A stretch of 64,000 nucleotides of DNA from GCF_054482525.1 NZ_CM137006.1, one strand, 5' to 3'; positions 4,601 to 56,866 are shown, counted from the stretch's first letter. The notes: a model not told the origin generated them from the letters alone. Program-made: numbers and translations.

Positions 4601-4616
4601 GCTTGAACGATTCACC
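4601..4616. promoter_or_regulatory. Candidate Cra (FruR) operator upstream of ppsA
   Basis: gcttgaacgattcacc resembles the Cra half-palindrome TGAA-CG-ATTCA, ~90 bp upstream of the ppsA start; ppsA is a known Cra-activated gene. Confidence 0.35.
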
Positions 4617-4702
4617 GTTTTTTTCATCCGGTTAAATATGCAAAGATAAATGCGCAGAAATGTGTTTCTCAAACCGTTCATTTATCACAAAAGGATTGTT
4701 CG

Positions 4703-7081
4703 ATGTCCAACAATGGCTCGTCACCGCTGGTGCTTTGGTATAACCAACTCGGCATGAATGATGTAGACAGGGTTGGGGGCAAAAATGCCTCCCTGGGTGA
4801 AATGATTACTAACCTTTCCGGAATGGGTGTTTCCGTTCCGAATGGTTTTGCCACAACCGCCGACGCGTTTAACCAGTTTCTGGACCAAAGCGGCGTAAAC
4901 CAGCGCATTTATGAACTGCTGGATAAAACGGATATTGACGATGTTACTCAGCTTGCGAAAGCGGGCGCGCAAATCCGCCAGTGGATTATCGACACTCCCT
5001 TCCAGCCTGAGCTGGAAAACGCCATCCGCGAAGCCTATGCACAGCTTTCCGCCGATGACGAAAACGCCTCGTTTGCGGTGCGTTCCTCCGCTACCGCAGA
5101 AGATATGCCGGACGCTTCTTTTGCCGGTCAGCAGGAAACTTTCCTCAACGTTCAGGGTTTTGACGCCGTTCTCGTGGCAGTGAAACATGTATTTGCTTCT
5201 CTGTTTAACGATCGCGCCATCTCTTATCGTGTGCACCAGGGTTACGATCACCGTGGCGTGGCGCTCTCCGCCGGTGTTCAGCGGATGGTGCGCTCCGACC
5301 TCGCATCTTCTGGCGTGATGTTCTCCATTGATACCGAATCCGGCTTTGACCAGGTGGTGTTTATCACTTCCGCATGGGGCCTTGGTGAAATGGTCGTGCA
5401 GGGTGCGGTTAACCCGGATGAGTTTTACGTGCACAAACCGACACTGGCGGCGAATCGCCCGGCTATCGTGCGCCGCACCATGGGGTCGAAAAAAATCCGC
5501 ATGGTTTACGCGCCGACCCAGGAGCACGGCAAGCAGGTTAAAATCGAAGACGTACCGCAGGAACAGCGTGACATCTTCTCGCTGACCAACGAAGAAGTGC
5601 AGGAACTGGCAAAACAGGCCGTACAAATTGAGAAACACTACGGTCGCCCAATGGATATTGAGTGGGCGAAAGATGGCCACACCGGCAAACTGTTCATTGT
5701 GCAGGCGCGTCCGGAAACCGTGCGCTCACGCGGTCAGGTCATGGAGCGTTATACGCTGCATTCACAGGGTAAGATTATCGCCGAAGGCCGTGCTATCGGT
5801 CATCGCATCGGCGCGGGTCCGGTGAAAGTCATCCATGACATCAGCGAAATGAACCGCATCGAACCTGGCGACGTGCTGGTTACTGACATGACCGACCCGG
5901 ACTGGGAACCGATCATGAAGAAGGCATCTGCCATCGTCACCAATCGTGGCGGTCGTACCTGTCACGCGGCGATCATCGCTCGTGAACTCGGCATTCCGGC
6001 GGTAGTGGGCTGTGGTGATGCAACAGAACGGATGAAAGACGGTGAGAACGTCACTGTTTCTTGTGCCGAAGGTGATACCGGTTATGTCTATGCGGAGTTG
6101 CTGGAATTTAGCGTGAAAAGCTCCAGCGTAGAAACGATGCCTGATCTGCCGTTGAAGGTGATGATGAACGTCGGTAACCCGGACCGTGCTTTCGACTTCG
6201 CCTGCCTGCCGAACGAAGGCGTCGGCCTTGCGCGTCTGGAATTTATCATCAACCGTATGATTGGCGTCCACCCACGCGCACTGCTTGAGTTTGACGATCA
6301 GGAACCGCAGTTGCAAAACGAAATCCGCGAGATGATGAAAGGTTTTGATTCTCCGCGTGAATTTTACGTTGGGCGTCTGACTGAAGGGATCGCGACGCTG
6401 GGTGCCGCGTTTTATCCGAAGCGCGTCATTGTCCGTCTCTCTGATTTTAAATCGAACGAATATGCCAACCTGGTCGGTGGTGAGCGTTACGAGCCAGATG
6501 AAGAGAACCCGATGCTCGGCTTCCGTGGCGCGGGCCGCTATGTTTCCGACAGCTTCCGCGACTGCTTCGCGCTGGAGTGTGAAGCAGTGAAACGTGTGCG
6601 CAACGACATGGGGCTGACCAACGTTGAGATCATGATCCCGTTCGTGCGTACCGTAGATCAGGCGAAAGCGGTGGTTGACGAACTGGCGCGTCAGGGGCTG
6701 AAACGTGGTGAGAACGGGCTGAAAATCATCATGATGTGTGAAATTCCGTCCAACGCCTTGCTGGCAGAGCAGTTCCTCGAATATTTCGACGGCTTCTCAA
6801 TTGGCTCAAACGACATGACACAGCTGGCGCTCGGTCTGGATCGTGACTCCGGCGTGGTGTCTGAACTGTTCGATGAGCGCAACGATGCGGTGAAAGCACT
6901 GCTGTCGATGGCGATTCGTGCCGCGAAGAAACAGGGCAAATATGTCGGGATTTGCGGTCAGGGTCCGTCCGACCACGAAGACTTTGCCGCATGGTTGATG
7001 GAAGAGGGGATCGATAGCCTGTCTCTGAACCCGGATACCGTGGTGCAAACCTGGTTAAGCCTGGCTGAACTGAAGAAATAA
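4703..7081 (+). CDS. ppsA: Phosphoenolpyruvate synthase PpsA, 792 aa
   Basis: 792-aa [37 protein letters not shown]; PEP-utilising enzyme family. Confidence 0.95.
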
Positions 7082-20843: not shown

Positions 20844-21200
20844 TTAACAAAGGCGCTCCAGATCGTGTGCATATAATTCAGCGGCTACCGATTGATAGAT
20901 CTTCCAGTCAATAAAATTGCCATCAGGGTAGACACGTTGAAACGCGGTTAAGTCGGGGAAAAAACGCATGGTGTTGTTGCCGATGCGGTTATTTATTTTC
21001 TCTATGATGGCATGAAGATGTTTTTTTCGTTGCTGTCGCATAGCCAACAGTTGCTCGACCACACGATCAGGAATGGCGCATTTGCCATTTTCCCACTGAC
21101 GCCAGCTTTCATTGTCACCGGTCTGGGCAATCCAGGTCGCGCATTCATCAATAGTCATAGCAAAAATATGGCGAAGAGCCTGGAGTTCATAAGCGTTCAT
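20844..21200 (-). CDS. ydiL: Uncharacterised protein YdiL, 118 aa
   Basis: Internal start MNAYELQALRHIF gives 118 aa; this is the gene next to rprA in K-12. Confidence 0.8.
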   Translation of the reverse strand: MNAYELQALRHIFAMTIDECATWIAQTGDNESWRQWENGKCAIPDRVVEQLLAMRQQRKKHLHAIIEKINNRIGNNTMRFFPDLTAFQRVYPDGNFIDWKIYQSVAAELYAHDLERLC

Positions 21201-21337
21201 CGTGTAATGGCTGCATGAAATAAACAATAAAATATAAATAACATTATCAGCCTGCCGACGGCTTGAAGAGAGTCACAGTATCTTGTGCAACATTATTGGA
21301 AAGCGTGAGGGGCGAGGTAGCGAAGCGGAAAAATGTT

Positions 21338-21407
21338 AAAAAAAAGCCCATCGTGGGAGATGGGCAAAGACTACACACAGCAATTCGTTGTTTCACTCAG
21401 GGGATTT
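21338..21407. repeat. Left attachment-site direct repeat (duplicate of the rprA 3' end and terminator, 70 bp)
   Basis: Identical to 32979-33048: aaaaaaaagcccatcgtgggagatgggcaaagactacacacagcaattcgttgtttcactcaggggattt. Confidence 0.9.
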
Positions 21408-21424
21408 AAGTCATTGATTGATTT

Positions 21425-22054
21425 ATGGGTATGCGGTTTTTCGGCATAAACCAAATTAAGCAAGGCTTGAAAATGGACACACAAATTGCACACATATCGC
21501 ACACAAATAAAAAGGGGTATGTATGGCGCAAGCGTTATGAAAAACGCACGATTGAAATCATCCTACGCACCCGTGATAAATCAATTGCCATAAAAAGAGC
21601 GGCATCAATAACAATTCGCTATATGGAATTAAAATCACTTGACGTTCCATTTAAAGCAATGCTGGAAATGTTAAAAAAGTTTCGTGATGGTCTGATTACG
21701 TCACATGACATTGAGCGCTTAAGGTCGATTGCGATAGCTTCACAGGAAGCTCCACACGCCGCTGTAACCGCTTCGCCTATACAAAGTGTTGGCTATGATG
21801 TCAAAACCGCTCAGAAAGCCGCACAGGGGCATTCCCTTGGCGATGCTCAAAAAGTGTACTTTGGCGCCAACACCGAATGGAAAGAAAAAACCATCAAGGC
21901 TTATTCTGGTTGTATCGACCGCTTTATTTTATGGTGCGCTAATAAAAATATTCATACCGTGGAAGAAATAACGAAAGAGCATGTGATTTCATTTAAATCC
22001 AGCATGGATGAAGAAAAATTAGCCTCCATGACTAAATTTCGCATAATAATATGA
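21425..22054 (+). pseudogene. Tyrosine-integrase-like N-terminal fragment (core-binding/SAM-like region only, catalytic domain missing)
   Basis: 209-aa ORF; the segment KTIKAYSGCIDRFILWCANKNIHTVEEITKEHVISF resembles an integrase core-binding domain; no R..HxxR..Y catalytic region follows; sits next to the att repeat. Confidence 0.4.
21477..21509. repeat. Three tandem ~11-bp repeats (acacacaaatt / gcacacatatc / gcacacaaata), candidate integrase arm-type sites, left end
   Basis: Direct tandem repeats ~70 bp inside the left att repeat; a matching triplet lies ~70 bp inside the right repeat. Confidence 0.5.
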
Positions 22055-22362
22055 TTCGGGTTAGCATAACCAATACTTTTATTAAAGCCTATGTATGCAC
22101 CAATTTCTTTATACTTTAACTTAGTGAAATCTGAAATAATACTCAGTGGCTGCAATACGTTATGTCCATTGTGCGCCCCTTCATTAGCGCAAAATCCTGT
22201 ATTTGCAAACTGACCTTTATCACGCCAGATGAATCTATCAACGCCGCCACATACAGGACATGGTGTATGTTCATTTGGTTTAATATCAATTCCAAAATCA
22301 TTCATATGCACCAATGGATTCTTTTTAATATAATTATTCAAATCAGTAAAGAAATTAGCCAT
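21952..22362 (-). pseudogene. DNA primase zinc-ribbon domain fragment (Toprim and downstream domains absent)
   Basis: Motif HTPCPVCGGVDRFIWRD typical of primase Zn-ribbons; ORF stops soon after; its 3' end overlaps the convergent integrase fragment. Confidence 0.45.
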
Positions 22363-22681
22363 TATATTTGCTCCCGTATCGCCTTGCTGGATGCTTTGCA
22401 AAGAAATCAACGATATCTTGTTTGCGATACCAGATATAACCGTCTAATTCATGATGAATTTCTTGCGGAAATTCTTTAGGGTTAAAGCGTTTGGCGGCAT
22501 AAAACATTGGTTTAGTAACACCAGATAAAGCAATTGCATCATTGCCACACACAAGCCCTGTAAGTTGCACTTTCTGCGATTGTTCTTTTATCTGTGCCGC
22601 GATTAGCCTTTTATTCTCATTAACGTATTTTTCAATCTGTAGCTTACGCATTTTTTCGCGCATGTAATTTATATCGGTCAT
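22355..22681 (-). CDS. AlpA/Xis-like small DNA-binding protein, 108 aa
   Basis: C-terminal region FYAAKRFNPKEFPQE...YIWYRKQDIVDFF resembles the AlpA-family FPK...W..R..DI..W pattern. Confidence 0.45.
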   Translation of the reverse strand: MTDINYMREKMRKLQIEKYVNENKRLIAAQIKEQSQKVQLTGLVCGNDAIALSGVTKPMFYAAKRFNPKEFPQEIHHELDGYIWYRKQDIVDFFAKHPARRYGSKYNG

Positions 22682-22697
22682 TTTAGTATCCTATATA

Positions 22698-24200
22698 TTA
22701 AGTCATTATCTGTGCTGGTGGGGTAATGATATGAATTATCCCTCGATTATTCATAATGAATCTACATCGTTCAAGCCCTGTAATTGCTCGCTTTATATTA
22801 TTTGGCTGCATTTTATACTCAGTTTTTAATGCCTTCGTTAAATCGGATTCATGTACACAGCCATCAGCACTAAATTCCATTAACTGTATTATCATTTCTA
22901 AAACTCGTTCTTGTGCTGGTGCATTTTTCTTTTTTAACTCGCTCATATATGAGTCGTAAGCGAGAGTATTATTACGCGCAGCATTTTGAGTAAAATTAAC
23001 TCCTGCTTCATATGATTCTGCATTTACAGCGTTTTGCATTAATTGCTTATTTTGCTGTTGCGTTGTTAGTGGTTGCCGCTGTTGCGTGTGCATTTGCGCA
23101 TAATCATTTATCGGTGATTGCTGCATGATAAATGGTTCATCATTAGCTTGTTTGCGTTCTATTTTTCCTGCTGCAATTACTGGAGTTGGCCTATCAATAA
23201 ATACCAACGTCTTAGTATTGGCGTTTACCTGATAACCTTTTGCATTTTCTTCGGGATAATCGCATAATTCATTATTAATATCATGTAATTCACAGACGGT
23301 AATTCCGTTATCCGCTGTGCATAAATCAAATTGCATCACTGGTAATTTTGCAGCGCTACGGTTTTTTTCGATAGTGAGTGATACGGATAACCCAAAATCA
23401 TTACCCTGCATTTGCTCTAGTTTAATGACTGTATCAGAGTCATTTTTAAGGGTAATGGCTCCTTTCATACCTTTAGCCGCATCTTTGCCGCCGTGGTGAA
23501 CCATCAAGACAAAAGAATTTGTTTCTACTGCAATTCTTTTCAAAATCGAAATCAGCTTACGCATTGCAATAGCATCATTTTCATCAGGATTTTCCATATC
23601 CAAAATGGTTTTTCCATCAATGCTTTTTTTTGTGTAGTATGCCAAAAATGAAGAAAGCGTATCAAAACAAATGATGCCGCCTTTGTTATTGGTGATTTTA
23701 TTTACATCATTTATTATTCGATTCTGTATTTCTTTATCAAATAAGTTTATTTGTGGTGACAAGATGTGCATTCTGTCATTTTTAACGCCACTATTAAACT
23801 TATTAGACCACGCTGTATTTCGATCTTTGATTTCAACGCCTGTTTCACCATCAAAATAAAAAGCATGGCATTCTTTAGCAACTCGCAAACCAGCCCACGG
23901 TTTACCCTGTGCAACTCTGTTTAAAAGAGATAATGCCGCAAATGATTTGCCTGTGTTGGATTCACCATAAAGGAAGCCGACCTGTTTTCGGTTAAATAGA
24001 TTTTCAATTACAGGGCGTAACCGCTTTTCTGATTGCAATTGAATTTCAGCTAATTCAATTGCACACAATTCATCATTTATACCATCATATTCAGACCACT
24101 CACCGTAGTTGGCGGGTGCGTAATAATCAATCGCGAGAGTGTAATAATAATCAGGAATAGCAGACCAATCAATAAACATTCCTGTGCACATATCATTCAC
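22698..24200 (-). CDS. RecA-like (RepA/AAA_25-type) replication ATPase, 500 aa
   Basis: Walker A GESNTGKS near residue 80; hydrophobic strand plus HHGGKD Walker-B-like region; Q/N-rich linker and C-terminal domain; flanked by AlpA-like genes and iterons. Confidence 0.55.
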   Translation of the reverse strand: MNDMCTGMFIDWSAIPDYYYTLAIDYYAPANYGEWSEYDGINDELCAIELAEIQLQSEKRLRPVIENLFNRKQVGFLYGESNTGKSFAALSLLNRVAQGKPWAGLRVAKECHAFYFDGETGVEIKDRNTAWSNKFNSGVKNDRMHILSPQINLFDKEIQNRIINDVNKITNNKGGIICFDTLSSFLAYYTKKSIDGKTILDMENPDENDAIAMRKLISILKRIAVETNSFVLMVHHGGKDAAKGMKGAITLKNDSDTVIKLEQMQGNDFGLSVSLTIEKNRSAAKLPVMQFDLCTADNGITVCELHDINNELCDYPEENAKGYQVNANTKTLVFIDRPTPVIAAGKIERKQANDEPFIMQQSPINDYAQMHTQQRQPLTTQQQNKQLMQNAVNAESYEAGVNFTQNAARNNTLAYDSYMSELKKKNAPAQERVLEMIIQLMEFSADGCVHESDLTKALKTEYKMQPNNIKRAITGLERCRFIMNNRGIIHIITPPAQIMT

Positions 24201-24247
24201 CGTAATTTGGGTATTTAATTAAGAAAAATTCAATTACTTCTTCTTTT

Positions 24248-24400
24248 TTATATAGATGCTTTGTTTTTTTTGTTTTTATCGCAAGTAACTAAATGCTCTT
24301 TTGGAAATTCTTTAGGGTTAAAACGTTTAGCCATATAAAAAGCGGTTGAGCCAATTTTAGCCAAAAGTTGTGCTTCACGAGGTGTAATTAAGTCGCTCAT
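24248..24400 (-). pseudogene. Second AlpA-like fragment (50 codons), partial duplicate of the 22355-22681 gene
   Basis: Translation MSDLITPREAQLLAKIGSTAFYMAKRFNPKEFPKEH... shares the FY-AKRFNPKEFP motif with the downstream AlpA-like gene; weak RBS; not in the ORF track (<60 aa). Confidence 0.3.
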
Positions 24401-24750
24401 GTAGGGTATCTCTTAGATGTATTCTGAGTGCGGTCATGGTAGGCGAGGGGAGGAATAGCGGCAAGCATTACCGGATATAGTAAGCACTACCAGCTAAAGT
24501 CTAACTAACTGTCAACAGATTGAGGCTAAAACCACTGTATGTAAATTCAATTTTAAAAATTAAAAATCATTCTGGCTTAACTAATTATGCTCAATTTAAA
24601 TTGAATCTGATAATAAAAAGAATCAATAAAATGGATTTAGTGATTTTTAGTTGGACGAAATCGTTCATTTTATGTGCATTGCTCGCTGGTGATAATTCAA
24701 CCAATCCATTCAACCTATTCGAATGGGTGGTGAATTTTTGACCGAATTAA

Positions 24751-24920
24751 ATTCACCTGAATATTCACCGAATGATTCACCTGAATCATTCAGCCCTTCA
24801 TTCACCACGAAACCCAGGCGCGGCGGGGCTTACAGGCCGATTCATTCACCTGAATATTCACCTGAATATTCACCTGAATTATTCAACCAAAAATTCACCT
24901 TCATATTCACTCATTCACCT
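24751..24920. repeat. Iteron array: two clusters of three 12-bp tandem repeats (ATTCACCTGAAT) plus degenerate copies
   Basis: Units at 24751, 24763, 24775 and at 24844, 24856, 24868 with further TTCACC copies; lies upstream of the Rep ATPase operon. Confidence 0.6.
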
Positions 24921-24957
24921 CTCTATAAATAAGCATTGGAATGCTTTTTATAGAGGT
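24921..24957. other. Long near-perfect inverted repeat (ctctataaataagcatt gg aatgctttttatagag), hairpin or operator
   Basis: About 16-bp arms with a 2-nt loop, T-run on one side; lies between the iterons and the ner-like gene. Confidence 0.4.
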
Positions 24958-25236
24958 TGATGAATGAAGGTCGTTCAAGTGAATGAACTGTGAGTTGGGT
25001 AAACCCCTAGGGGTTGGGGGTGTTGTCGATTTGTGGTAAATTCCTTCTGCCAGCGTGAAAAAGGCGCTGGTGGGGATTTGCAGCCCCAAACAAACAAAAC
25101 CATTGGCAAGGAATTGCCGATGCGCGTGCGCACGTCAGTTATGGCGGTCACGGCGAGGGAGTCGAAAGGCTCGCCAGTTTTGTTTGTTTGCTGGTACTGC
25201 AAACCTCGTCGTGATCGTCACCACGGGGATGCATGT

Positions 25237-25488
25237 ATGCAGGAAACAGACTGGCACAAAGCGGATATTCTTGCCTCTTTAAAGAAAAAGAAAATCAGCA
25301 TGGCGGGATTATCCCGTGAACATGGTTTATCAAGTAGCACGTTGCTAAATGCACTTAGTAGAGAATGGCCTAGAGGCGAATTAATTATTGCTAATGCAAT
25401 TGGTGTGTCACCTCAAGAAATATGGCCTTCTAGGTATTTTGAAAAAGATGGCTCTCCAAAAAATCGTGTGATTCGTAAACCTGTTTAA
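25237..25488 (+). CDS. Ner/Nlp (SfsB)-family HTH DNA-binding regulator, ~83 aa
   Basis: MQETDWHKADILASLKKKKISMAGLSREHGLSSSTLLNALSREWPRGELIIANAIGVSPQEIWPSRY closely resembles Ner/Nlp; I prefer the internal ATG at 25237 over the 151-aa ORF start. Confidence 0.6.
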   Translation: MQETDWHKADILASLKKKKISMAGLSREHGLSSSTLLNALSREWPRGELIIANAIGVSPQEIWPSRYFEKDGSPKNRVIRKPV

Positions 25489-25705
25489 ATAAGTCAATGC
25501 GTCTCTGATTAAAAGGGGCGCATTTTTGTTTTTACTGACTTGTTGCAATGTGGGATATGTTGCGCACGTGTGTGCGATAGTTGTTAATTGTTTTTTGTAC
25601 TAGTTAACAAATACGAATTTTCTGAGGGTGCTATTTTGGGTTTTAGCTGCGGCTTCGCCTTGCTGCCCTTCGGGCTGGTGGTGCAAGAAGAATGTTTGAA
25701 AACTT

Positions 25706-25751
25706 CCTTTTCTTTGCTTCACCAGCCCCGTAGGGGCGTGAGCGTAGCGAA
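25706..25751. repeat. 46-bp direct repeat, copy 1 (ccttttctttgcttcaccagccccgtaggggcgtgagcgtagcgaa)
   Basis: Identical to 29912-29957; contains a gcccc-gta-ggggc hairpin; ~100 bp upstream of the 383-aa gene. Confidence 0.85.
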
Positions 25752-25849
25752 CCTAATCACTTTGATTTTGACACATATCGGTTCTATCATTTTCAGGAAA
25801 ATCATCATAGAATTATATAAAACATACGATTTTTAAGGTGAATTTTTAA

Positions 25850-27001
25850 ATGCACGAGAAAGCGCAAACAAAAATAAAAGATACTATTAGAGAAATACTA
25901 ATCACTCCAGCAATCGCTTTTACTGGTCGTGCAGGTCATTTTGATTTTTCATTATATGAAGTTTTAGCAAATGAGCTTAACAAAAGAAAGATAAAGTTTA
26001 AAATTGATAAATTATCATGTTGGATTATTTTTGATGGCGCAAAAAAACATTACTTTCAAGATAAATCAATTACTGACGCACAAGCGATAAATGATTTTGT
26101 GGATACGTTATGTAGTATTTACTGTGAAACACCTATGGATTACTCCATCGATTTTCACTTTAGAAATTTAAAAATCGATATCAACCCGATTGATTATGAG
26201 TTTGTTTCAATTAGAGCGGGTGAGGATATTGGTATTGGTTTGTTCGCTGAAAAAGAAAAGTATGCGATTGCGAGCATTAAAAAGAATGGCTATCTTTCAG
26301 GTGGTTATCCTAGCTCATTTATAAAATCGATTTTGCAAGATTTGAAAATCTTCATTTTTTTGATTAAAAGCATTAATTTGATTAAGACAGGAAAAACCAA
26401 TTTAGCATCCACGTTATTTCAATCGATGTCCGGTCATGCTGACACAATTAAGATTGATTGCGTTAATGTTAAATATCCTTGGATGAATAGCAGTGTCCAT
26501 ATTTCAGAGTCGGTAGGGAAATTTTTACACAACTTTATCTTCAATTATGAATTTGAAGAAGGCTACATTATAGAAAAAATAGATCATTCGCTTCAGCTAA
26601 TGAATGCAATAGTAAAAGATGAGTCAAAAGAAGCCTTGCGTATCAAGGCTGCAATTGATTGGTTGGTGCAATCTGAAATCACTGATGATGAAACCATGTC
26701 TTTTATTCAAATTTGCATGGGGCTTGAATCAATTTTTGGTGATGATGATTATGAGGGTGGCCTAACAAACATACTATCTGATAGATGCGCCTACTTAATA
26801 GGGAATAAAATTAAAGAGAGGAGATTTATAAAGGACACATTTAAAAAAATATATCAAGTTAGGTCAAAGATAGTGCATGGCGTAAGAAATCATTTATCAG
26901 ATGATGAATTATATTTTAGGCATTTAGCATATTCATATTTAGAGCGTTCTATTCTAAAAGAAATTCAAAATTTAGACCTGCAATCCCATCAGGCGACGTG
27001 A
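25850..27001 (+). CDS. Hypothetical protein with C-terminal HEPN-like R-x4-H-G motif, 383 aa
   Basis: AGGTGA RBS 8 nt upstream; C-terminal ...KKIYQVRSKIVHGVRNH matches the R-x4-6-H signature of HEPN RNases; strongly AT-rich. Confidence 0.4.
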   Translation: MHEKAQTKIKDTIREILITPAIAFTGRAGHFDFSLYEVLANELNKRKIKFKIDKLSCWIIFDGAKKHYFQDKSITDAQAINDFVDTLCSIYCETPMDYSIDFHFRNLKIDINPIDYEFVSIRAGEDIGIGLFAEKEKYAIASIKKNGYLSGGYPSSFIKSILQDLKIFIFLIKSINLIKTGKTNLASTLFQSMSGHADTIKIDCVNVKYPWMNSSVHISESVGKFLHNFIFNYEFEEGYIIEKIDHSLQLMNAIVKDESKEALRIKAAIDWLVQSEITDDETMSFIQICMGLESIFGDDDYEGGLTNILSDRCAYLIGNKIKERRFIKDTFKKIYQVRSKIVHGVRNHLSDDELYFRHLAYSYLERSILKEIQNLDLQSHQAT

Positions 27002-27236
27002 AGCTTGTGCGCTTCATTATGGGGCTAGCCGCCATCAGGCAAGGCGATTGCATGTCTTTGCGCTTCGTCGCCTCCTGATGCGTTCTGTGAAGATGTCGAT
27101 CATTTAGTGAGCGCGGCGGATGTTGCTGATGGATAGTGTGGATGCAACTGAACCATACCGCGAAAAGTGGCAGGATTGCGCCGGAATCGTACCGCTAGCA
27201 GGTGTTGAGTGTAAGAAGTAGTGATTGGGTGAAATG

Positions 27237-27275
27237 AAGATAGAAGGCCGCATAGAGGCATACAACTAGCCTTAT
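27237..27275 (-). terminator. Hairpin downstream of the lipoprotein gene (candidate terminator)
   Basis: ccgcata...tatgcgg stem followed, on the minus strand, by a T-rich tract. Confidence 0.35.
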
Positions 27276-27288
27276 GCGGTTGGCTGGT

Positions 27289-27732
27289 TCAGCACTGGTA
27301 AAAGTTGGCGAGGTGTGGAATATGGCTGGTGGTGGTTTCGAAAGCCTTGAGGCGTCCATTTTTATCTTTTTTCAAGTAGAGCATTTTTAGTGCTGGTGGA
27401 AATACTGAATCCATAATTCCATAAACTCCCACATTTTCGTTTTCTTCTTTAAGCATTCCCCAATATTGATAACCATTTAATGCGCTATCATCAATGCCCG
27501 TTCCAACGCGCTTAATGTGGGCAAGATATCGGCCTTTTATCGTAAAGCTAAATGATTCATCACGTTCATTTGTGCAAGTGTAAAATCCATCATCGCTTTC
27601 ATTTATAACTTCAGATGCTTCACGATTTAATGAGTACTTGTCTAAGTTGTTTATGATGTCACTTCGCTGTGCGCATCCAGTCAAATTTAGAATGGTAAAA
27701 ATTAGTACAGAAGATGCAAGATATTTGTTCAT
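27289..27732 (-). CDS. Predicted lipoprotein, ~147 aa
   Basis: N-terminus MNKYLASSVLIFTILNLTGC carries a signal peptide with lipobox LTGC; internal ATG at 27732 preferred. Confidence 0.55.
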   Translation of the reverse strand: MNKYLASSVLIFTILNLTGCAQRSDIINNLDKYSLNREASEVINESDDGFYTCTNERDESFSFTIKGRYLAHIKRVGTGIDDSALNGYQYWGMLKEENENVGVYGIMDSVFPPALKMLYLKKDKNGRLKAFETTTSHIPHLANFYQC

Positions 27733-27818
27733 TTTGATTATCCATATGAAAAGCAAGGTACTTAGATTAAATTACCCTGCTTAAGCAGTAATTAGCGGTT
27801 CCGTTAATAGAGGGTAGA

Positions 27819-28178
27819 TTATTTGTTAATTTGTTTTTTAGTGTGTGAGATAAAATTTCTAAGTAAATCTTTTTCAATTACAATTTCACATTTTAGGTTT
27901 TGGCTATCGACCGCATCAATTCTATCAAACCAAAACATTAATTCCTGGCTTGCATCGCATTTACGTTTGAATTTAATTGCCCTGCCGAATTTTTCACTTA
28001 AAGAATCATCATCACATAAAAAATAAATTTTATTATTAATGGTGATTTGAATTAAATATGTCTTCCTCGTTAGGTAATCTAACCTTTCGTTAGCTTTCAG
28101 TAAGTTAGCTTCAGCTTGTTTGATGCGTATAAGAGCATCCTCTTTGCTTAAAGGGGATGTATTGACAGACTTGATCAT
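27819..28178 (-). CDS. Hypothetical protein, 119 aa, upstream partner of the lipoprotein
   Basis: AAGGA RBS 8 nt upstream of the ATG; co-oriented with the lipoprotein gene, 86-bp gap. Confidence 0.5.
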   Translation of the reverse strand: MIKSVNTSPLSKEDALIRIKQAEANLLKANERLDYLTRKTYLIQITINNKIYFLCDDDSLSEKFGRAIKFKRKCDASQELMFWFDRIDAVDSQNLKCEIVIEKDLLRNFISHTKKQINK

Positions 28179-28287
28179 AATTTAATCCTTTGGTTAAGAT
28201 TCATCAAAAATATGCCATAAATAGCCTTGAAGGTTGTGTGGAATACATATTATGATAGCTTCATCTAATCAGCAAGGGGAATAATAG

Positions 28288-28443
28288 ATGCCTTCTAAAC
28301 GTGTTATATGCTCACTTGATGAGCAAGAGTTAGATATTCTCGAAAAATATAAATTACATTATAAAAATATGCATGGCGTAAAATTAAACAGAACGGCAAT
28401 TATCAAAATGTTGATTAGTCGTCTATCAAAAGAAATTCAATAA
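28288..28443 (+). CDS. Ribbon-helix-helix (Arc/CopG-like) small DNA-binding protein, 51 aa
   Basis: MPSKRVICSLDEQELDILEKYKLHYKNMHGVKLNRTAIIKMLISRLSKEIQ shows a beta-strand/helix/helix pattern; GGGGA RBS; divergent from the 27819-28178 operon; below ORF-track length cutoff. Confidence 0.45.
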   Translation: MPSKRVICSLDEQELDILEKYKLHYKNMHGVKLNRTAIIKMLISRLSKEIQ

Positions 28444-28495
28444 TAATTCTAATTACCAATTAATTTAAACTTCACATAATTAAAGAGGCAACTCT

Positions 28496-28810
28496 ATGCA
28501 CACTCTTTTTTCTAAATTTAAAAACAGGAAAATTAAAATGTATCAACCACGTTATAAAAGCAGAATGATTGACGATAATGAATATAATCAGGTGCTTCAA
28601 TCGAGAATGCAAAATCTTTTAAATCAATATAATAATGAGGTTTCAAACTTAACCCGCATTGGTGTTACAAATTTGGGTTTCGGCCGATGGGATAATGGAG
28701 AGAGCAAAATCAATAACCACGTTAATAAAGTAAGTGAGACTTTGGAAAAGATGCAATCTACGCAAGCCTTGATTGATGCTCTTGCAAATGAAATTACACA
28801 AACTAATTAA
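28496..28810 (+). CDS. Hypothetical protein, 104 aa
   Basis: AAGAGG RBS 8 nt upstream; no recognisable motif. Confidence 0.45.
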   Translation: MHTLFSKFKNRKIKMYQPRYKSRMIDDNEYNQVLQSRMQNLLNQYNNEVSNLTRIGVTNLGFGRWDNGESKINNHVNKVSETLEKMQSTQALIDALANEITQTN

Positions 28811-28894
28811 TCGAATGGGGGATGCTTTAAATGGTAATCGCAATCATGGTTGTAATGTTTTGGGCTTTCCTGATTCTTAAAGAGGAAATGAAAT

Positions 28895-29179
28895 ATGGTT
28901 AAATTTGGAGTGTTTTACCATCATGCATGGGGTGATGGTAAAAAGGAAATCCCGCCACCTGATTTAAATTACATCCGAACCGATCCACATAAAAATAATG
29001 AAATTGCTTTAGATGTTTTTGATTCAAGAATGGACGCACAAAAACGCGCTGATTTACTAAATTCACGCATGGCAAAAAATCAAACTGGTCAGCATTATGT
29101 TGCGCCAACAACGCAAGAAACCAAAACGGCTCAAAAGCGCTTTAAGTTTCCTTGTACTAGCATTTATGGGTGGAAATGA
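28895..29179 (+). CDS. Hypothetical protein, 94 aa (paralog family A)
   Basis: AGAGGA RBS; N-terminus MVKFGVFYHHAWGDG is similar to the next gene's N-terminus. Confidence 0.45.
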   Translation: MVKFGVFYHHAWGDGKKEIPPPDLNYIRTDPHKNNEIALDVFDSRMDAQKRADLLNSRMAKNQTGQHYVAPTTQETKTAQKRFKFPCTSIYGWK

Positions 29180-29181
29180 AA

Positions 29182-29556
29182 ATGAGTAAACAATTCGGTG
29201 TTTTCTTTTGGCGAAAAGGTGACGCTATTACCGATATCCCGTCAGATAAAAATGTTGCAAATCGCGGAGTAAAGCCTAAGCGCATTTTTTCAGATTATAT
29301 TGATGGAATGCGATATAAAGATAAAATGAATGCAACAATTCCAGCGGCGCAAAAAGGTAAATATGAATATGTATTAGCGGAAATTGTTGAACCAGACCCG
29401 AACAATACAAAGGTGTTGTTTAAATCTGGAAATTTAACAGAAGCATTAAGGGCGAAGCGACAAACAACCGAACAAATCAACCGAAATAAAATTGATGCAA
29501 TGATTAAAGAAGCCGCACACGATTACCTTTACACTATTACAGGAATGGAAAAATGA
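29182..29556 (+). CDS. Hypothetical protein, ~124 aa (paralog family A)
   Basis: N-terminus MSKQFGVFFWRKGDA parallels the upstream gene; GGTGGA RBS; start at 29182 preferred over 29170. Confidence 0.45.
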   Translation: MSKQFGVFFWRKGDAITDIPSDKNVANRGVKPKRIFSDYIDGMRYKDKMNATIPAAQKGKYEYVLAEIVEPDPNNTKVLFKSGNLTEALRAKRQTTEQINRNKIDAMIKEAAHDYLYTITGMEK

Positions 29557-29852
29557 TTATTGACGAGCGATTTATTAAATGGTCAATGGTGCTGGTGGAG
29601 GCCGGAAAGCCATCACCCAGCCTCGCGGGGCTTTATAAAGGAAACACTAAAGGATTAATCTTTTATAAAACACGTGAATTGGCATCAAATGCAGCCACTA
29701 AACGGAATGAGCAATTAGCAGGAACTAAATCAACCAGCCGATTTAAAATCATTAAATTGCATGACGCAGAAGCACAACAGAAACATGATTTTCAGTTAAA
29801 ACAGGAACGCCAGCGCCGCGATGCACGCCATATGCGCCGATTTGGTTTCTAA
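29553..29852 (+). CDS. Hypothetical basic protein, 99 aa
   Basis: 4-bp ATGA overlap with the upstream gene suggests translational coupling; Lys/Arg-rich C-terminus. Confidence 0.4.
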   Translation: MIIDERFIKWSMVLVEAGKPSPSLAGLYKGNTKGLIFYKTRELASNAATKRNEQLAGTKSTSRFKIIKLHDAEAQQKHDFQLKQERQRRDARHMRRFGF

Positions 29853-29911
29853 ATATAACTCAATAACTCAACCAATGGTGATGTTAAAGAATAAGGTGGC
29901 CTTAAATTTCA

Positions 29912-29957
29912 CCTTTTCTTTGCTTCACCAGCCCCGTAGGGGCGTGAGCGTAGCGAA
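29912..29957. repeat. 46-bp direct repeat, copy 2
   Basis: Identical to 25706-25751; 37 bp upstream of the tape-measure-like gene. Confidence 0.85.
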
Positions 29958-29993
29958 ATAAGTAACATTAATATCAAATCAGAGGTAAATAAA

Positions 29994-31982
29994 ATGGCAG
30001 GTGAAAATGCTCAATTGGGCTTTTCCGTCGATACATCGGAAGTGGAAACAGCATCAAAAAGGCTTAATGAATTAGCTAAATCAGCGCAAGGGGCGGCTGA
30101 TTCGGCTGGCAAATTATCAGATTCATTTGAGGAAAGTATGAAGGGTGTTAATTCATCAATTACTTCCAATCATCAGGCTATGCGCGAATTAACGGTAATG
30201 ATGCACGAAGCAATGTCTGGTAATTGGTCGCGCTTGCGTGGTTCTGCAATGATTATGGGCGGCGCATTGGGATTTGGTGGATTAACTAGCGGTGCGGTAG
30301 TTGGTGGAATTACGCTTGTTTCGGAAGGCATTGAATCGCTAATTGAAGGAATGCGAGAAGCTCAAAAAGCAGAAACTGAATTAAATAATTCTGCTGTAAT
30401 TACAGCAGATGTAAGCCTTTTAAATAGTGATTATGTTGATTCACTTACTATTGGTTATGAGAAATTAGGCTATTCAGCAACACAAGCAAAAGGCATGATT
30501 GCAGCGTTAAGTAATGCGGGTATGTTTGGTGATGAATTTAGTGTTGCAGGTAAACAAATTGCCGCACTATCTAAAGCGTTAGGCGGTAATTCAGACGAAC
30601 AAAAAAAATTAGCTGGTCAATTTGGTGGCTTGTATTCTGACCCGCTAGGACACGTTAACGAATTTTTCCAAGTAACAAACGGATGGATTACCAAAACCGA
30701 ACAAAACCGAATTAATGCGGCTGAACAATCGCATAATTCAGCACAAGCTGAAATGGCTATGCAAGAAGCGCTATTAGATGTTTATAAGCGTCAAACCGAT
30801 ATGCTACAGCTTAAAGCCTATTTGGAAACTAACGCCGCTACATATTCAGCCTTTCAGACGCGCGAACAATTCGGCAGCGCATGGGGTAAGGGCGAAAAAG
30901 AAAAGGCAGACGCATTTATCAAGCAATATGACGAGCGCCAGCAATCATTTAATCAGGGCGTTGAAAAGCTAAAAGGAAGCATTCACGAAACAGGACGCCA
31001 GATAAGGGAAAATGTAGAAGAATTTAATAAAGGAATGCATCCCCATAAAGTGCATACACACCACGGATTAACAGCAATTGAGAAAGCAGCTAAACAATTG
31101 GTGACCTACCAAACCCAAATTAAACAGGCTGGTTTGCAATTTGACCAGCAAATTAATTCAATTGGTGATTCAGTAAATAATGCGTGGAGTAATAAATTAT
31201 ACTCTTATTCAATGTCTTCTGACCAGAATGATTTTGCAAACCGAATTGAACAAATCAATGAACAATTCGACCGTATGCGCGAAAATGTAGACCGTTTGGC
31301 GCTGCAACATCATAAATCAATTGGTTCAAAAGAATATGTTGAAATGTTCCAAAAAATCGAATTAGGGCGCAAAAACGTATTGGCTGAAAACGTTGCTGGA
31401 TTTAATGAAATGGAGTCATTGCAGCATTCAGCGCTGGCGGGAATGGATGAGGGATGGATTAAATACCAGAAGCAGGTTAATGATGTTGCAAGCCAATCAG
31501 AGAAAGTTTTTGATACGGCTGTTGAGGGAATGACAAATTCATTAACTGATTTCTTTACAACTGGTGAGGCTGGTTGGACTAATTTTGTAAAATCAATCGC
31601 AACAATCACTGAAAAATACATGGTTCAAGATTGGATTGTTGAGCCGCTAGCAGGATTAGTAAAAGGGGGGATTAGCTCGCTATTTTCATCAAATCCATTG
31701 AGTTCAACGGCTAACACTTTTGCCGTTCCCGATATTCCAAAATTGGGCGCAACTCATTTAGGAGGCGGTCTAGGTTCGACCGCACCAGTTATCAATATCA
31801 CCATTAATGACAATGGCAACAAAGGCGGCGTTGATAGCAATGTTAGCGGCACAACAGGGCAAGTACAAAAAATGGGGGCGGCGCTAGATAAATTCCTGCA
31901 AAACTATATCAAAGAGCAAAACGTAAAATCCAACCGTCAGGGCGGGTTAAACAAAACAATGGGGAACTGGTCGACAAGATAA
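29994..31982 (+). CDS. Phage tail tape-measure protein homolog (lambda gpH-like), 662 aa, orphan
   Basis: Glycine-rich hydrophobic segment MIMGGALGFGGLTSGAVVGGITLV near the N-terminus, long helical middle, C-terminal FDTAVEGMTNSLTDFFTTGEAGWTNFVKSI and ...VINITINDNG matching, from memory, the lambda H C-terminal region; AGAGGT RBS. Confidence 0.6.
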   Translation: MAGENAQLGFSVDTSEVETASKRLNELAKSAQGAADSAGKLSDSFEESMKGVNSSITSNHQAMRELTVMMHEAMSGNWSRLRGSAMIMGGALGFGGLTSGAVVGGITLVSEGIESLIEGMREAQKAETELNNSAVITADVSLLNSDYVDSLTIGYEKLGYSATQAKGMIAALSNAGMFGDEFSVAGKQIAALSKALGGNSDEQKKLAGQFGGLYSDPLGHVNEFFQVTNGWITKTEQNRINAAEQSHNSAQAEMAMQEALLDVYKRQTDMLQLKAYLETNAATYSAFQTREQFGSAWGKGEKEKADAFIKQYDERQQSFNQGVEKLKGSIHETGRQIRENVEEFNKGMHPHKVHTHHGLTAIEKAAKQLVTYQTQIKQAGLQFDQQINSIGDSVNNAWSNKLYSYSMSSDQNDFANRIEQINEQFDRMRENVDRLALQHHKSIGSKEYVEMFQKIELGRKNVLAENVAGFNEMESLQHSALAGMDEGWIKYQKQVNDVASQSEKVFDTAVEGMTNSLTDFFTTGEAGWTNFVKSIATITEKYMVQDWIVEPLAGLVKGGISSLFSSNPLSSTANTFAVPDIPKLGATHLGGGLGSTAPVINITINDNGNKGGVDSNVSGTTGQVQKMGAALDKFLQNYIKEQNVKSNRQGGLNKTMGNWSTR

Positions 31983-32043
31983 TATTATGTTGCTTAGTAA
32001 GTCTAAACTTTACGCCCTAATTAGGGCGTTTTATTTAAAAAAG

Positions 32044-32661
32044 TTAATTTGCTGTATTTTCTCTCATCTTTCTAAGTTCTGGCAATACTTTCTTATAGAA
32101 TTTCGTAGTGGAATCAGCGCAGTAGTTTTGCAGATACTTATAGTTTTCTTCAAATTTAGGGAGATCTTTAGCTACCGTCAATTGCTTTGGTAAAGTTCCG
32201 GTAGCATCATCGGTTATATCAAATGTTATTGAATTATGTTTTCGATCTTCATTAACTTTTTTTAAAGTGGCAACAATAGGGCTTTTATCCATAGAACCAT
32301 CTATTAGTTGGCGAACTTGAAACTTCCTTGGGATTATAAAATTAATTACTGACGGAGGTTCACTATTTAATGTTATATTCCAAGTTATTGGCATAGCATC
32401 ACATAAACCTTCAGATATTATTTCACCATCAATTGAACCATCAGAATTGGCGATAAATTGTATTATAACAAGTGGTTGATCTTTATTTAAGCCAAGATCT
32501 CCACTATTTATTATATATTCAGCGTCTGTCGACCATTTGCCTGTTAGAAATTCTTTTTGATAAAGTGCTTCATTTATTTCACCTCTATATGGTAAATATA
32601 GACCTATAGCACCAATTGCAACACCTAATACAGTGCATATTGTTGTTATTCGTCCACTCAT
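32044..32661 (-). CDS. Membrane-anchored hypothetical protein, 205 aa
   Basis: N-terminal hydrophobic helix ITTICTVLGVAIGAIGLYLPY; AT-rich; at the island edge. Confidence 0.45.
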   Translation of the reverse strand: MSGRITTICTVLGVAIGAIGLYLPYRGEINEALYQKEFLTGKWSTDAEYIINSGDLGLNKDQPLVIIQFIANSDGSIDGEIISEGLCDAMPITWNITLNSEPPSVINFIIPRKFQVRQLIDGSMDKSPIVATLKKVNEDRKHNSITFDITDDATGTLPKQLTVAKDLPKFEENYKYLQNYCADSTTKFYKKVLPELRKMRENTAN

Positions 32662-32875
32662 ATCACACTCGTTATCTTATCCTTGTTGTAGTTAAGCATT
32701 TTATTTTATTTTTTTATTGTGAAAATGGCTAGTTTTAGTTGGGTCTTGCGCTGAATCTAACGAGTGCTTACCCCGTGAAGTGATTTATGATTAAAGTTCG
32801 TTTTGTTTTTGGTTAAAAAATGAACATGTGAGTGCTTTGGAAAATTTCTGTAACACTCACCTGATTTACGCTGGT

Positions 32876-32909
32876 AGCACACAAATGGTACACAAACGGC
32901 ACACAGGTA
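32876..32909. repeat. Three tandem ~11-bp repeats (agcacacaaatgg / tacacaaacgg / cacacaggtaa), candidate integrase arm-type sites, right end
   Basis: Mirrors the left-end triplet; same orientation; ~70 bp inside the right att repeat. Confidence 0.5.
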
Positions 32910-32978
32910 ATCGCATACCTTTAATGACCTAATTTCTTCAAGCCCCTGCATTGCTGCGTTTGTCGTGATTTTCGGCAT

Positions 32979-33048
32979 AAAAAAAAGCCCATCGTGGGAG
33001 ATGGGCAAAGACTACACACAGCAATTCGTTGTTTCACTCAGGGGATTT
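32979..33048. repeat. Right attachment-site direct repeat (3' 70 nt of intact rprA)
   Basis: Identical to 21338-21407. Confidence 0.9.
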
Positions 33049-33084
33049 CCATGCTTATAAATCAATATGTTGATTTATAACCGT
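32979..33084 (-). ncRNA. rprA: Small regulatory RNA RprA (activator of rpoS translation)
   Basis: Minus-strand sequence ACGGTTATAAATCAACATATTGATTTATAAGCATGGAAATCCCCTGAGTGAAACAACGAATTGCTGTGTGTAGTCTTTGCCCATCTCCCACGATGGGCTTTTTTTT matches RprA from memory, including the intrinsic terminator; lies between ydiK and ydiL. Confidence 0.85.
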
Positions 33085-33269: not shown

Positions 33270-34382
33270 TTACTTATTCGGTTTCTCTATTTCGCCAAGT
33301 TCTTCGAGAACTTCTTCCGGTTGGTCAGTCGGCGGTGGGACTTCTTCCACCCACGCGGCAAAAAGACGCCAGGAAACGGCTAACAGAACCGGACCAATAA
33401 ACAGGCCGATCATCCCGAAAGCAATCAAACCACCAATAACGCCAGAGAGGATCAGGATCAGCGGTAAATCGGCACCCATGCGAATTAACATTGGGCGGAT
33501 GACGTTATCCAGCGTGCCGACCACACCGCTCCACACTAACAGTACCGTTCCCCAGGTGGTATCACCGGTCCAGTAGAGCCAGATAATCGCCGGAATCAGT
33601 ACCGGCAATGGTCCAAGCTGGACAAGGCAGGAGAGGATCATTAACACCGTGAGCAAAGTTGCATAAGGTACGCCGGATACGGCGAGGCCGATACCGCCAA
33701 GCACTGCCTGTACTAACGCTGTCACCACAACACCCAGCGCCACCGCGCGGATAGCTTGTGCCGCTAGCAGCACGGCGGCATCTCCACGAACGCCTGCCAG
33801 ACGGGTTGCAAAATGGCGAATGCCTTGTGCCACCTGTTCACCGCGCCAGTACAGCAGGGCACTGAAGAGAAGCATCAGCGCACAATGCACCATAAAGCGC
33901 CCGATATGCGCCGCTTGCCCAACGAACCAGGTGGTGGTGGTGCCAATATAAGGACGGACTTTTGCCATGATCGCCGTCCCCCCCATATCCAGCAAGTTGT
34001 GCCAGCCTGCATACAGCTTCGCGCCAATCACCGGAATGGTATTAAGCCACGCCAGATCGGGTAACGTCATGTCACCGCTGGAAATGGCTTTAATTAGCGG
34101 GCCGCTGCCGTCGACGATACTGTTAACCAGCAAGGCAATAGGGATGATAAACACCATCACTAATAACAGCGTCATCACCAGAACGGCGAGAGAGCGGCGA
34201 CCAAACATGATCTTTTGCAAACGTAACAATACCGGCCAGGTGGCGATGACCACCGTACCAGCCCATGCAAAGCCGAGAATAAAGGGTTGTACAATCCACA
34301 GACATGCCACAATCATGATGGCTAAAAAGAGCACCGAAAGCAGAATTTGTGCGACATCCCTGGGCTGACGAACATTTACCAT
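33270..34382 (-). CDS. ydiK: AI-2E family (UPF0118) inner-membrane transporter YdiK, 370 aa
   Basis: 370-aa multi-TM ORF; upstream neighbour of rprA as in K-12. Confidence 0.88.
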   Translation of the reverse strand: MVNVRQPRDVAQILLSVLFLAIMIVACLWIVQPFILGFAWAGTVVIATWPVLLRLQKIMFGRRSLAVLVMTLLLVMVFIIPIALLVNSIVDGSGPLIKAISSGDMTLPDLAWLNTIPVIGAKLYAGWHNLLDMGGTAIMAKVRPYIGTTTTWFVGQAAHIGRFMVHCALMLLFSALLYWRGEQVAQGIRHFATRLAGVRGDAAVLLAAQAIRAVALGVVVTALVQAVLGGIGLAVSGVPYATLLTVLMILSCLVQLGPLPVLIPAIIWLYWTGDTTWGTVLLVWSGVVGTLDNVIRPMLIRMGADLPLILILSGVIGGLIAFGMIGLFIGPVLLAVSWRLFAAWVEEVPPPTDQPEEVLEELGEIEKPNK

Positions 34383-38522: not shown

Positions 38523-38747
38523 TCCTGACTTAATGCCGCAATTTCGCCAAATCGACCTGGATTAACCTCCGTCCAGGTTCGATGACCTTCTTAATACTGC
38601 TTATCTACCCGCCTGATATTGTTCAAAAATAATACTAATCGCAGTTTGTGTTAAAACGGCGGGTTAGCTTTATGAGATTATTCTTATCGCCCCTTCAAGA
38701 GCTAAGCCACTGAGAGTGCCGGAGATAAGCGCCGGATGGGGTAGAAA

Positions 38748-38788
38748 CCCTTAAGCCTGTGTCGCACAGACTTAAGGGTTTTCTTATT
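38748..38788 (+). terminator. Rho-independent terminator-like hairpin in the ydiH-sufA intergenic region
   Basis: cccttaagcctgtg...cacagacttaaggg stem followed by ttttcttattt. Confidence 0.5.
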
Positions 38789-56758: not shown

Positions 56759-56866
56759 AGCGATTCTCCTTCTGATAACGCATACGAAGACAGTGTAAAT
56801 CTTTTAACGTATTGGATACAGAGAAGAAACAGAGGGAAAAAAGGAGAAGACCAGATTAAGAAAATC

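Follow-up and report, generated by a model that had tools for sequence, protein, structure and literature searches.

A genomic island at the 3' end of the small RNA gene rprA in Escherichia coli, and its relatives in other Enterobacteriaceae

We analysed a 64,000-nucleotide stretch of NZ_CM137006.1 (GCF_054482525.1), hereafter the window, for an island that lies between ydiL (20844-21200, minus strand) and ydiK (33270-34382, minus strand) and ends in the small RNA (sRNA) gene rprA. Both flanking genes were placed from the RefSeq annotation of the identical locus in PCN033. RprA is an Hfq-dependent regulatory sRNA. The complete rprA gene (RF00034) is at the ydiK end, on the minus strand at 32977-33084, and scores 118.8 bits against an Rfam gathering score of 70 over model positions 1-108. 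A repeat search of the window gave two 100% identical direct copies of 71 nt, at 21337-21407 and 32978-33048, with a start-to-start spacing of 11,641; they correspond to the 3' two-thirds of RprA. The first, the left attachment site (attL), is a displaced RprA 3' end that adjoins ydiL, and the second, the right attachment site (attR), is the 3' part of the intact rprA; both are in minus-strand orientation. An exact repeat of this length in 64 kb is far beyond chance. Between the copies lie 11,570 bp of island DNA (21408-32977) with a GC content of 0.373 vs 0.495 for the remaining window. An initial annotation made from the sequence had already described a complete minus-strand RprA at the ydiK end and an AT-rich interval bracketed by identical repeats, and all of this holds; its figures of 70 nt for the repeat and 11,571 bp for the interval are corrected here to 71 nt and 11,570 bp.

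The attL copy gives a weaker second RprA match (21336-21456, minus strand; 81.4 bits), which is still above the gathering score. This score is due to the 71 common nucleotides, as the part for the 5' stem-loop aligns poorly and includes a 21-nt insertion. The terminator scan showed that the terminator hairpin and U-run are kept in this fragment. Read directly, the rprA locus of the K-12 derivative EPI300 (L023) has the same RprA as the window over 32978-33084, U-run included, the sole difference being base 32977, the first base beyond the repeat. The transcribed sequence of RprA thus appears unaltered by the insertion, and no consequence for RprA is visible. The upstream region of ydiL stays on the chromosomal side of attL. 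Rfam found neither a tRNA nor a transfer-messenger RNA (tmRNA) at either island end, and the target is RprA itself.

A query consisting of both flanks joined through one repeat copy, a form of the flank search that the initial annotation had proposed for finding empty sites, was run against 5,426 complete E. coli genomes. The empty site, a contiguous ydiL-rprA-ydiK with a single copy, is present in 5,386 of them, K-12 derivatives included, in keeping with the earlier statement that the three genes are contiguous in K-12; in EPI300 the single copy was read directly. Roughly 19 further chromosomal records match the query in two places, and these carry no duplicate of the RprA 3' end according to the count of the 71-mer. 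The island family occurs in five of the 5,426 genomes, in each case between ydiL and rprA-ydiK and with RprA annotated at both ends. The island is 100% identical in PCN033, SCU-102, and 19KM1776 and 88% identical in FREC5, and in S10 it aligns over parts at about 82%; locus L020 holds one more island in E. coli. The 71-mer was located at 5,428 chromosomal places among the 5,426 genomes, and of the 5,424 E. coli records with a match, 5,405 have it at 99% identity or more. Since this count fits one copy per genome with one extra for each of the five island genomes, the 71-mer is not a dispersed repeat. The insertion is therefore strain-specific, as had been claimed, and these numbers contradict both an island shared by all E. 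coli and a common dispersed repeat unrelated to rprA.

Matches to the RprA 3' end were also seen at three plasmid places. One plasmid match, of 48 nt and 95.8% identity to the RprA terminator, is on an 89-kb plasmid of E. coli CH468 (NZ_JBRBPZ010000006.1, 31068-31115), where it carries no feature annotation.

The integrase of intact relatives has 401 aa (PF00589/PHROG_1) and is encoded approximately 65 nt from attL. At E <1e-20 it has 75 homologues, and every named source belongs to the Enterobacteriaceae. Integrases that are 78-87% identical, from Enterobacter hormaechei, Salmonella enterica, and Citrobacter freundii, have this same island family as their neighborhood; in these loci int is preceded, at a distance of about 65 nt, by 70 nt of the RprA 3' end, and in the alignment the island-side junction is almost invariant. 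Decayed copies exist in Phytobacter and in metagenomes. Integrases that are 49-58% identical (58% and 53% in two E. coli, 49% in Klebsiella aerogenes) reside in full prophages with SU10-type portal and adaptor genes (L009, L010, and L011), and directly beside each is a 32-nt sequence that copies the RprA terminator exactly and nothing more of the gene, adjoining ydiL in E. coli and ppsA in K. aerogenes. This 32-nt core, composed of T, A8, the hairpin GCCCATC-GTGGGA-GATGGGC, and AAA, matches the window exactly at 21337-21368 and 32978-33009. More distant integrases (L013, 47%; L012, 37%) are at other sites where no RprA fragment is present. In the DNA seen, the island and the rprA prophages have only the integrase and the 32-nt core in common. 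Both integrase types are absent from 50,697 phage records, in which the best identity is at most 28%, and none of the 5,426 complete E. coli genomes has the prophage type. Because islands in several genera and prophages occupy the same terminator, the rprA 3' end is very probably the chromosomal attachment site (attB) of a whole Enterobacteriaceae integrase clade, a coherent one that is carried by both prophages and small islands and has specialised on this site.

Some copies of the site are more complex. In E. hormaechei (L006; 6575-6607 and 9017-9134), a second, 33-nt terminator copy lies 3.3 kb upstream with an IS1222-type frameshift element between, and in Phytobacter massiliensis (L014; 481 and 2249), two terminator copies accompany a gutted island. 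These extra copies are remnants of earlier occupants or signs of tandem occupancy of the site. A metagenome contig (ERZ1106949 NODE-1383, L016) from a different enterobacterial host has a mini-island of approximately 6.7 kb between attL and attR, which keeps only parts of int, of the region of the 383-aa gene described below, and of the tape-measure gene. The chromosomal neighborhood varies as well, as ydiL is missing at the corresponding site in Enterobacter and K. aerogenes, where ppsA or other genes flank. In the window, the ydiL product matches Pfam Aca2_YdiL (PF08965), an anti-CRISPR-associated-type helix-turn-helix (HTH) domain.

Taken together, the intact rprA, its displaced 3' fragment, and the relatives at the same site agree with the proposal that the rprA 3' end is an attachment site, with the gene regenerated and its 3' part duplicated, and we consider it very probable that the island was integrated there site-specifically by a tyrosine integrase. 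In this scheme, 21408-32977 would be a horizontally acquired element that entered by tyrosine-integrase recombination between a phage-type attachment site (attP) bearing RprA 3' sequence and the chromosomal rprA 3' end, with the exchange inside the common identity block, most probably at or just 5' (in the sense of the RNA) of the terminator hairpin. The rprA at the ydiK end would keep its own promoter and 5' part and receive its terminator and U-run from the island, while the displaced host 3' fragment would stay at the ydiL end beside the integrase gene. The logic of tRNA and tmRNA islands would thereby be applied to an Hfq-dependent sRNA gene. An origin that was not site-specific, by transposition with target duplication, illegitimate recombination, or an assembly artefact, is effectively refuted. 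Nothing specific speaks for it beyond the fact that the window copy is without a functional recombinase, and a 71-bp duplication is far longer than those made by transposons. The identical structure is moreover seen in independent complete genomes and a metagenome contig, and in several genera the very same nucleotide position is occupied by diverged relatives whose tyrosine integrases are intact.

Nucleotide differences in Salmonella help to place the exchange. On the plus strand, the terminator of the E. coli and island copies reads GCCCATC GTGGGA GATGGGC, with G and T at repeat positions 19 and 25. The attL fragment of one Salmonella locus (L007) reads GCCCATC GTAGGA GACGGGC, with A and C at these positions, a form that agrees with the Rfam consensus and with what we take to be the native Salmonella RprA. 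The attR copies that form the working rprA in two other Salmonella loci (L024 and L025) read GCCCACC GTGGGA GATGGGC, with G and T plus a T15C of their own. L007 and the Citrobacter copy, which has an attL terminator of the E. coli type, do not differ in their island-side flanks. These patterns suggest that positions 1-25 are of host origin in attL and of island origin in attR, that the crossover lies beyond position 25, and that the island donates the terminator. In the prophages, the exchange is confined to the 32-nt block, and the 32-nt core is the probable region of strand exchange or its border. If the island and prophage integrases cut alike, the exchange would fall within positions 26-32 (GGGCAAA).

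Several observations weigh against this account of the integration. The crossover placement draws on single nucleotide polymorphisms (SNPs) compared across different Salmonella strains and on an assumed native Salmonella terminator. A single SNP in the FREC5 attL, at position 51 inside the pairing region, may reflect drift after integration, and since nothing holds the sequence of a displaced fragment constant, it was dropped as a crossover marker. Neither an attP nor a circular form turned up in the viral collection (IMG/VR, 0 matches) or in the genome and metagenome scans, which gave integrated forms only, and excision was not observed. Finally, the integrase gene is beside the displaced fragment and not beside the intact gene, which is the less usual arrangement for tRNA islands.

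The identity block of the island is 39 nt longer than that of the prophages (71 vs 32 nt), which may reflect a different crossover or a retained RprA core. The latter would give the attL copy a role of its own: the attP would carry the RprA core deliberately, and island transcripts ending there would yield an extra RprA-like sRNA. Besides the longer block, this idea draws on the start of the block at about the 5' edge of what we take to be the rpoS-pairing region, so that the attL fragment presumably holds most of that region, on the retained terminator and U-run and the Rfam score above the gathering threshold, and on the leftward replication operon, which points towards the fragment. However, the promoter scan found no sigma-70-like promoter upstream of the attL fragment on the minus strand, the 5' stem-loop is not conserved, a leftward transcript must cross the convergent int gene, and the FREC5 SNP falls inside the pairing region. 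A crossover near its 5' edge, as in tRNA islands, explains the long block equally well, and we regard an active attL copy as quite improbable.

RprA-like sequences are also present in phages. The temperate E. coli phages vB_EcoM-606R2, 689R2, 611R5, LLS, Eeyore, and Flotzy have an intergenic stretch near the repressor that equals the RprA 3' region ATTGCTGTGTGTAGTCTTTGCCC (L004, ON470579, ~2997-3110; L005, PQ299149, ~2501-2526; window counterpart 32978-33026). What comes next is a terminator hairpin unlike that of RprA, with a U-run. In 606R2 the element reaches 50 bits against RF00034, short of the gathering score. As these stretches are not beside an integrase, they were rejected as attP; the element looks like an RprA-like sRNA borne by phages.

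The architecture of the island family was compared in the window and in L002, L003, L006-L008, and L019-L026. The gene order begins with the integrase and a leftward replication operon of a GIY-YIG nuclease, a Zn-ribbon/Toprim primase, a 108-aa protein, a helicase, and a small ORF. A control region with palindromes follows, then a rightward C4-type RNA, a Ner-like gene and, in most copies, a variable protein of approximately 383-400 aa. Next come two leftward genes, a rightward operon of small ORFs that ends in a tape-measure homologue of 662-737 aa, and a cargo slot at attR. Copies that are intact with both ends seen (FREC5, S10, and L019) measure about 12-14.5 kb, the intact E. coli relatives about 13-14.5 kb.

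In the window, three GCACACAWAT-type repeats with 11-nt spacing lie inside the left end (21477-21508, plus strand) and are kept in the E. coli and Enterobacter copies. A matching CACACA set with the same spacing lies inside the right end (32877-32908, plus strand) and is 79% identical to the left set. At 70-100 nt inside both ends, these sets are plausible candidates for arm-type integrase sites. The integrase gene is represented by a truncated form (21473-22054, plus strand; RefSeq annotation and homology to the FREC5 int) with approximately 188 codons homologous to the 401-aa integrase, and the primase by a remnant with the zinc-binding N terminus only (21952-22362, minus strand), of which PHROG DNA-primase matches cover residues 43-86 only; intact primase homologues have 330 aa with Zn_Ribbon_Prim and Toprim_3 domains. 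The 108-aa protein (22355-22681, minus strand) has this length in all island variants and had no family match in the PHROG scan. The gene at 22698-24200 (minus strand) encodes a replicative helicase-like ATPase of the AAA_25 or DUF3987 class (PHROG 2850, 3228, and 906) with helicase-primase matches in PHROG down to E 1e-33 and approximately 30% identity to siphovirus replicative helicases.

The repeat search found five exact copies of a 12-bp palindrome, ATTCACCTGAAT (24751-24879, plus strand), in the region that separates the replication operon from the divergent C4/Ner operon. At two mismatches or fewer it has 24 matches in the window, a number reached in 0 of 100 shuffles, and the palindromes are likely operators or iterons. 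The C4-type antisense RNA (RF01695; 25137-25225, plus strand) scores 65.8 bits against a gathering score of 45 and is directly upstream of the Ner-like gene; it reaches 60-66 bits in six further island loci and is above the gathering score in every copy examined. The Ner-like gene (25237-25488, plus strand) encodes an 83-aa Ner/SfsB-like regulator with an HTH_35 domain, which matches the transcriptional repressor family PHROG 769 at E 1.8e-30 and NCBIfam SfsB at E 3e-28, the latter below the model cut-off. The AlpA-like function named in the initial annotation was not found in the island, its small HTH protein being of this Ner/SfsB type.

An approximately 60-nt repeat with a GC hairpin, CAGCCCCGTAGGGGCG, occurs upstream of the 383-aa gene (25706-25766, plus strand) and, as an 89% identical second copy, just upstream of the tape-measure-like gene (29912-29972). 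It is likewise duplicated in a related Salmonella island at another site (ybjS, L019). Pairing of the C4 RNA with the two CAGCCCCGTAGGGGCG repeats was rejected, as the duplex energies are at island-wide background, and no specific complementarity of the C4-type RNA to internal repeats of the island was found. The variable 383-aa protein (25850-27001, plus strand) is named "HEPN domain-containing" in RefSeq, a name not confirmed here, as Pfam, PADLOC, NCBIfam, and PDB gave no match; between variants its gene has about 70% or no DNA identity. Two conserved leftward genes (27289-28178, minus strand) encode proteins of approximately 147-155 aa and 119 aa, of which the 119-aa protein is found in every variant. 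Neither the 155-aa nor the 119-aa protein had a significant family match in the PHROG, NCBIfam, PADLOC, Pfam, and PDB searches.

Five small ORFs of 51-128 aa (28288-29852, plus strand), without family matches in PHROG, form the operon that leads into the tape-measure-like gene. A G/GT pair of tail-assembly chaperones upstream of this gene was considered and is not supported: a slippery heptamer near the overlap is absent, the second overlapping ORF has its own ATG, and PHROG gave no match. The tape-measure-like protein has 662 aa (29994-31982, plus strand) and contains Tape_meas_lam_C (PF09718, E 9.6e-15). It matches PHROG 339 over residues 17-572, PHROG 24, and residues 532-702 of lambda gpH (8iyk_H, E 3.6e-7), while its score of 82 against TIGR01541 is below the cut-off of 104.75. 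These matches make it a genuine homologue of siphovirus tape-measure proteins of the lambda gpH type. Residues 482-581 also match PDB 25vf chain 5 (612 aa, "Lambda phage tail tape-measure protein (Tape_meas_lam_C)") at E 4.2e-7, about equal to lambda gpH. The family has only 24 members at E <1e-10, and all named ones are enterobacterial.

Variant comparison defines the cargo slot next to attR (31984-32839, minus strand), which in the window holds a 205-aa protein (32044-32661) without Pfam or PADLOC matches; it is empty in FREC5 and is filled in S10 by a PIN-domain protein of 381 aa. PADLOC, Pfam, NCBIfam, and PDB gave no defense annotation for the 383-aa, 205-aa, 155-aa, and 119-aa proteins. 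Outside the island, Rfam detected rydB at 38689-38749 (plus strand) and two tRNA genes at 56870-56943 and 56951-57024 (both minus strand); a match to the antisense-RNA family HPnc0260 (56742-56905) overlaps them from the other strand.

Alignment by blastn with the FREC5 island (L002), supported by the gene tables, shows that the window is without 1,874 bp present there (3630-5503), the junction at 22036/22037 corresponding to L002 3629/5504. This deletion takes the integrase from about codon 189 on, and with it the whole catalytic domain, the gene of the GIY-YIG/T5orf172 nuclease, and all but the N-terminal third of the 330-aa primase, so that the Toprim part is lost too. The window's DNA homology to the 1,206-nt int gene of FREC5 ends at nucleotide 564. 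For the PCN033 copy, which is identical, RefSeq names the integrase stump (193 aa) "integrase N-terminal SAM-like domain" and the primase stump (136 aa) "primase-helicase zinc-binding domain". The claim that the island encodes an integrase and a primase thus holds for the relatives only, the window having N-terminal stumps. With the catalytic half of the integrase and the Toprim part of the primase lost, the window copy is no longer able to excise or replicate on its own. Three complete genomes share the deleted form, as does a metagenome contig with the chromosomal flanks still attached, which fits vertical inheritance of an immobilized element. The window copy is accordingly a fixed fossil, a defective passenger that is probably inherited vertically.

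The backbone is not restricted to rprA. Salmonella sister islands (L019, L021, L022, and L026/L034) carry it between ybjS- and ybjT-like genes, where the integrase is an unrelated one of 450 aa, the direct repeats have 55 nt, and Rfam detected no RNA. One representative of the tape-measure cluster at the ybjS site stands for 891 sequences, indicating that this lineage is much commoner than the rprA lineage. As the same backbone is joined to two unrelated integrase/att modules, it is better explained as a coherent modular element than as a random prophage remnant. The opposing explanation, that the island is a decayed siphovirus-type prophage once integrated at rprA, with the tape-measure gene as its last structural gene, would account for a tape-measure-like protein as the sole structural homologue, for the decay of the window copy and the further decay of L014 and L016, and for the lack of detected packaging functions. 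Yet the same gene order is found in at least five genera in intact forms of about 12-14.5 kb and recurs with both integrase/att modules, at rprA and at ybjS-ybjT, and independent random decay would not converge on a single architecture. In addition, the full rprA prophages with SU10-type portal and adaptor genes share only the integrase with the island. We consider a prophage remnant unlikely.

A phage-dependent, satellite-like mode of life is the reading of the modular element that we prefer, at about even odds. The PHROG scans covered every ORF of the island and gave no families other than primase, helicase, repressor, tape-measure, integrase, and nuclease. What counts against a satellite is that no capsid, terminase, terS, packaging, Psu, Sid, Delta, or AlpA homologue was detected in these scans, that no helper phage was identified and no phage shares the regulatory region of the island, and that the tape-measure protein is without a close relative in IMG/VR. 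Two leads to a helper were rejected, namely the rprA prophages, which have only the integrase and the 32-nt core in common with the island, and an island call in IMG/VR, of which the adjoining DNA is ordinary chromosome. A more specific version of the satellite reading is doubtful, though it merits mention: the islands at rprA and their sisters at ybjS-ybjT may be undescribed satellites with a tape-measure protein of their own and C4-RNA/Ner immunity, without capsid or packaging genes, whose integrase and attP were borrowed from phages with SU10-type portals and whose long attP may express or buffer RprA.

That elements integrate at the 3' ends of small RNA genes and regenerate them is an established, textbook principle. 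The rprA target and its integrase clade appear to be unreported, and the island backbone appears undescribed; the literature searched, including the reports on TIGER/Islander and on the PCN033 genome, does not report rprA, ydiL, or ydiK as an integration site, and no literature linking satellites with tape-measure genes was found. The site would add an Hfq-dependent sRNA gene, entered via its Rho-independent terminator, to the conserved small-RNA targets of integrases, which is useful for island-mapping software that mostly scans tRNA and tmRNA genes. Because the 71 nt are so conserved in E. coli, the rprA site is also useful for integrase bioprospecting. For sRNA biology, lysogens would bear a second RprA 3' module and an island-derived terminator, and the backbone with its tape-measure homologue may be a new type of satellite. 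For the window itself the biological consequence is small, with RprA unchanged and the passenger defective.

Among known systems, the island resembles P4-like satellites and the phage-inducible chromosomal islands (PICIs) of Gram-negative bacteria in its small size (approximately 12-15 kb when intact), integrase, primase-helicase replicon, regulation by a small RNA, and cargo slots near the end. The CI RNA of P4 is analogous to the C4-type RNA. Unlike P4 and PICIs, the island has no detected homologue of Psu, Sid, Delta, epsilon, AlpA, terS, or capsid-redirecting proteins. Its primase and helicase are separate genes and not an alpha-type fusion as in P4, it carries a tape-measure homologue, and no helper is known. 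Of the PICI arrangement of int-alpA-pri/rep with a packaging set, it has only the int and pri/rep parts. In the absence of AlpA, Psu, Sid, Delta, terS, and capsid genes, it is by gene content neither a P4-like satellite nor a PICI. The control region resembles immI of P1 and P7 in that an RF01695 RNA is directly upstream of the first ORF of an operon, and differs from it in that the downstream genes encode a Ner-like HTH protein and the variable 383-aa protein instead of icd/ant.

Small non-coding RNA genes have been described as attB sites before, namely ffs (4.5S RNA) for the Enterococcus phage phiEf11, which splits ffs within the gene, and csRNA genes in pneumococcus (PMC12540744). The nearest precedent for rprA is that a recent version of Phage_Finder adds the RprA Rfam model to its candidate target RNAs; rprA appears in that report in this capacity only and is not presented as a demonstrated target (PMC12540744). 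In contrast to ffs in phiEf11, rprA is regenerated unchanged, and the present case has another host clade, another RNA, and other integrases.

The closest parallel is with tRNA and tmRNA islands such as P4 at leuX and CP4-57 at ssrA (the Islander/Williams model). Common to both are a tyrosine integrase near one end, an attP that bears the 3' part of the small RNA, an intact gene and a displaced 3' fragment as direct repeats, a highly conserved target containing a hairpin, tandem or remnant arrays, and an uninterrupted attB in related genomes. Unlike these islands, the target is an Hfq-dependent sRNA gene whose hairpin is a Rho-independent terminator and not a tRNA-like arm, the integrase is beside the displaced fragment, and the identity block has 71 nt vs 32 nt in the related prophages. 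Since its target is neither a tRNA nor a tmRNA, the rprA island works like the Islander class without being a strict member of it.

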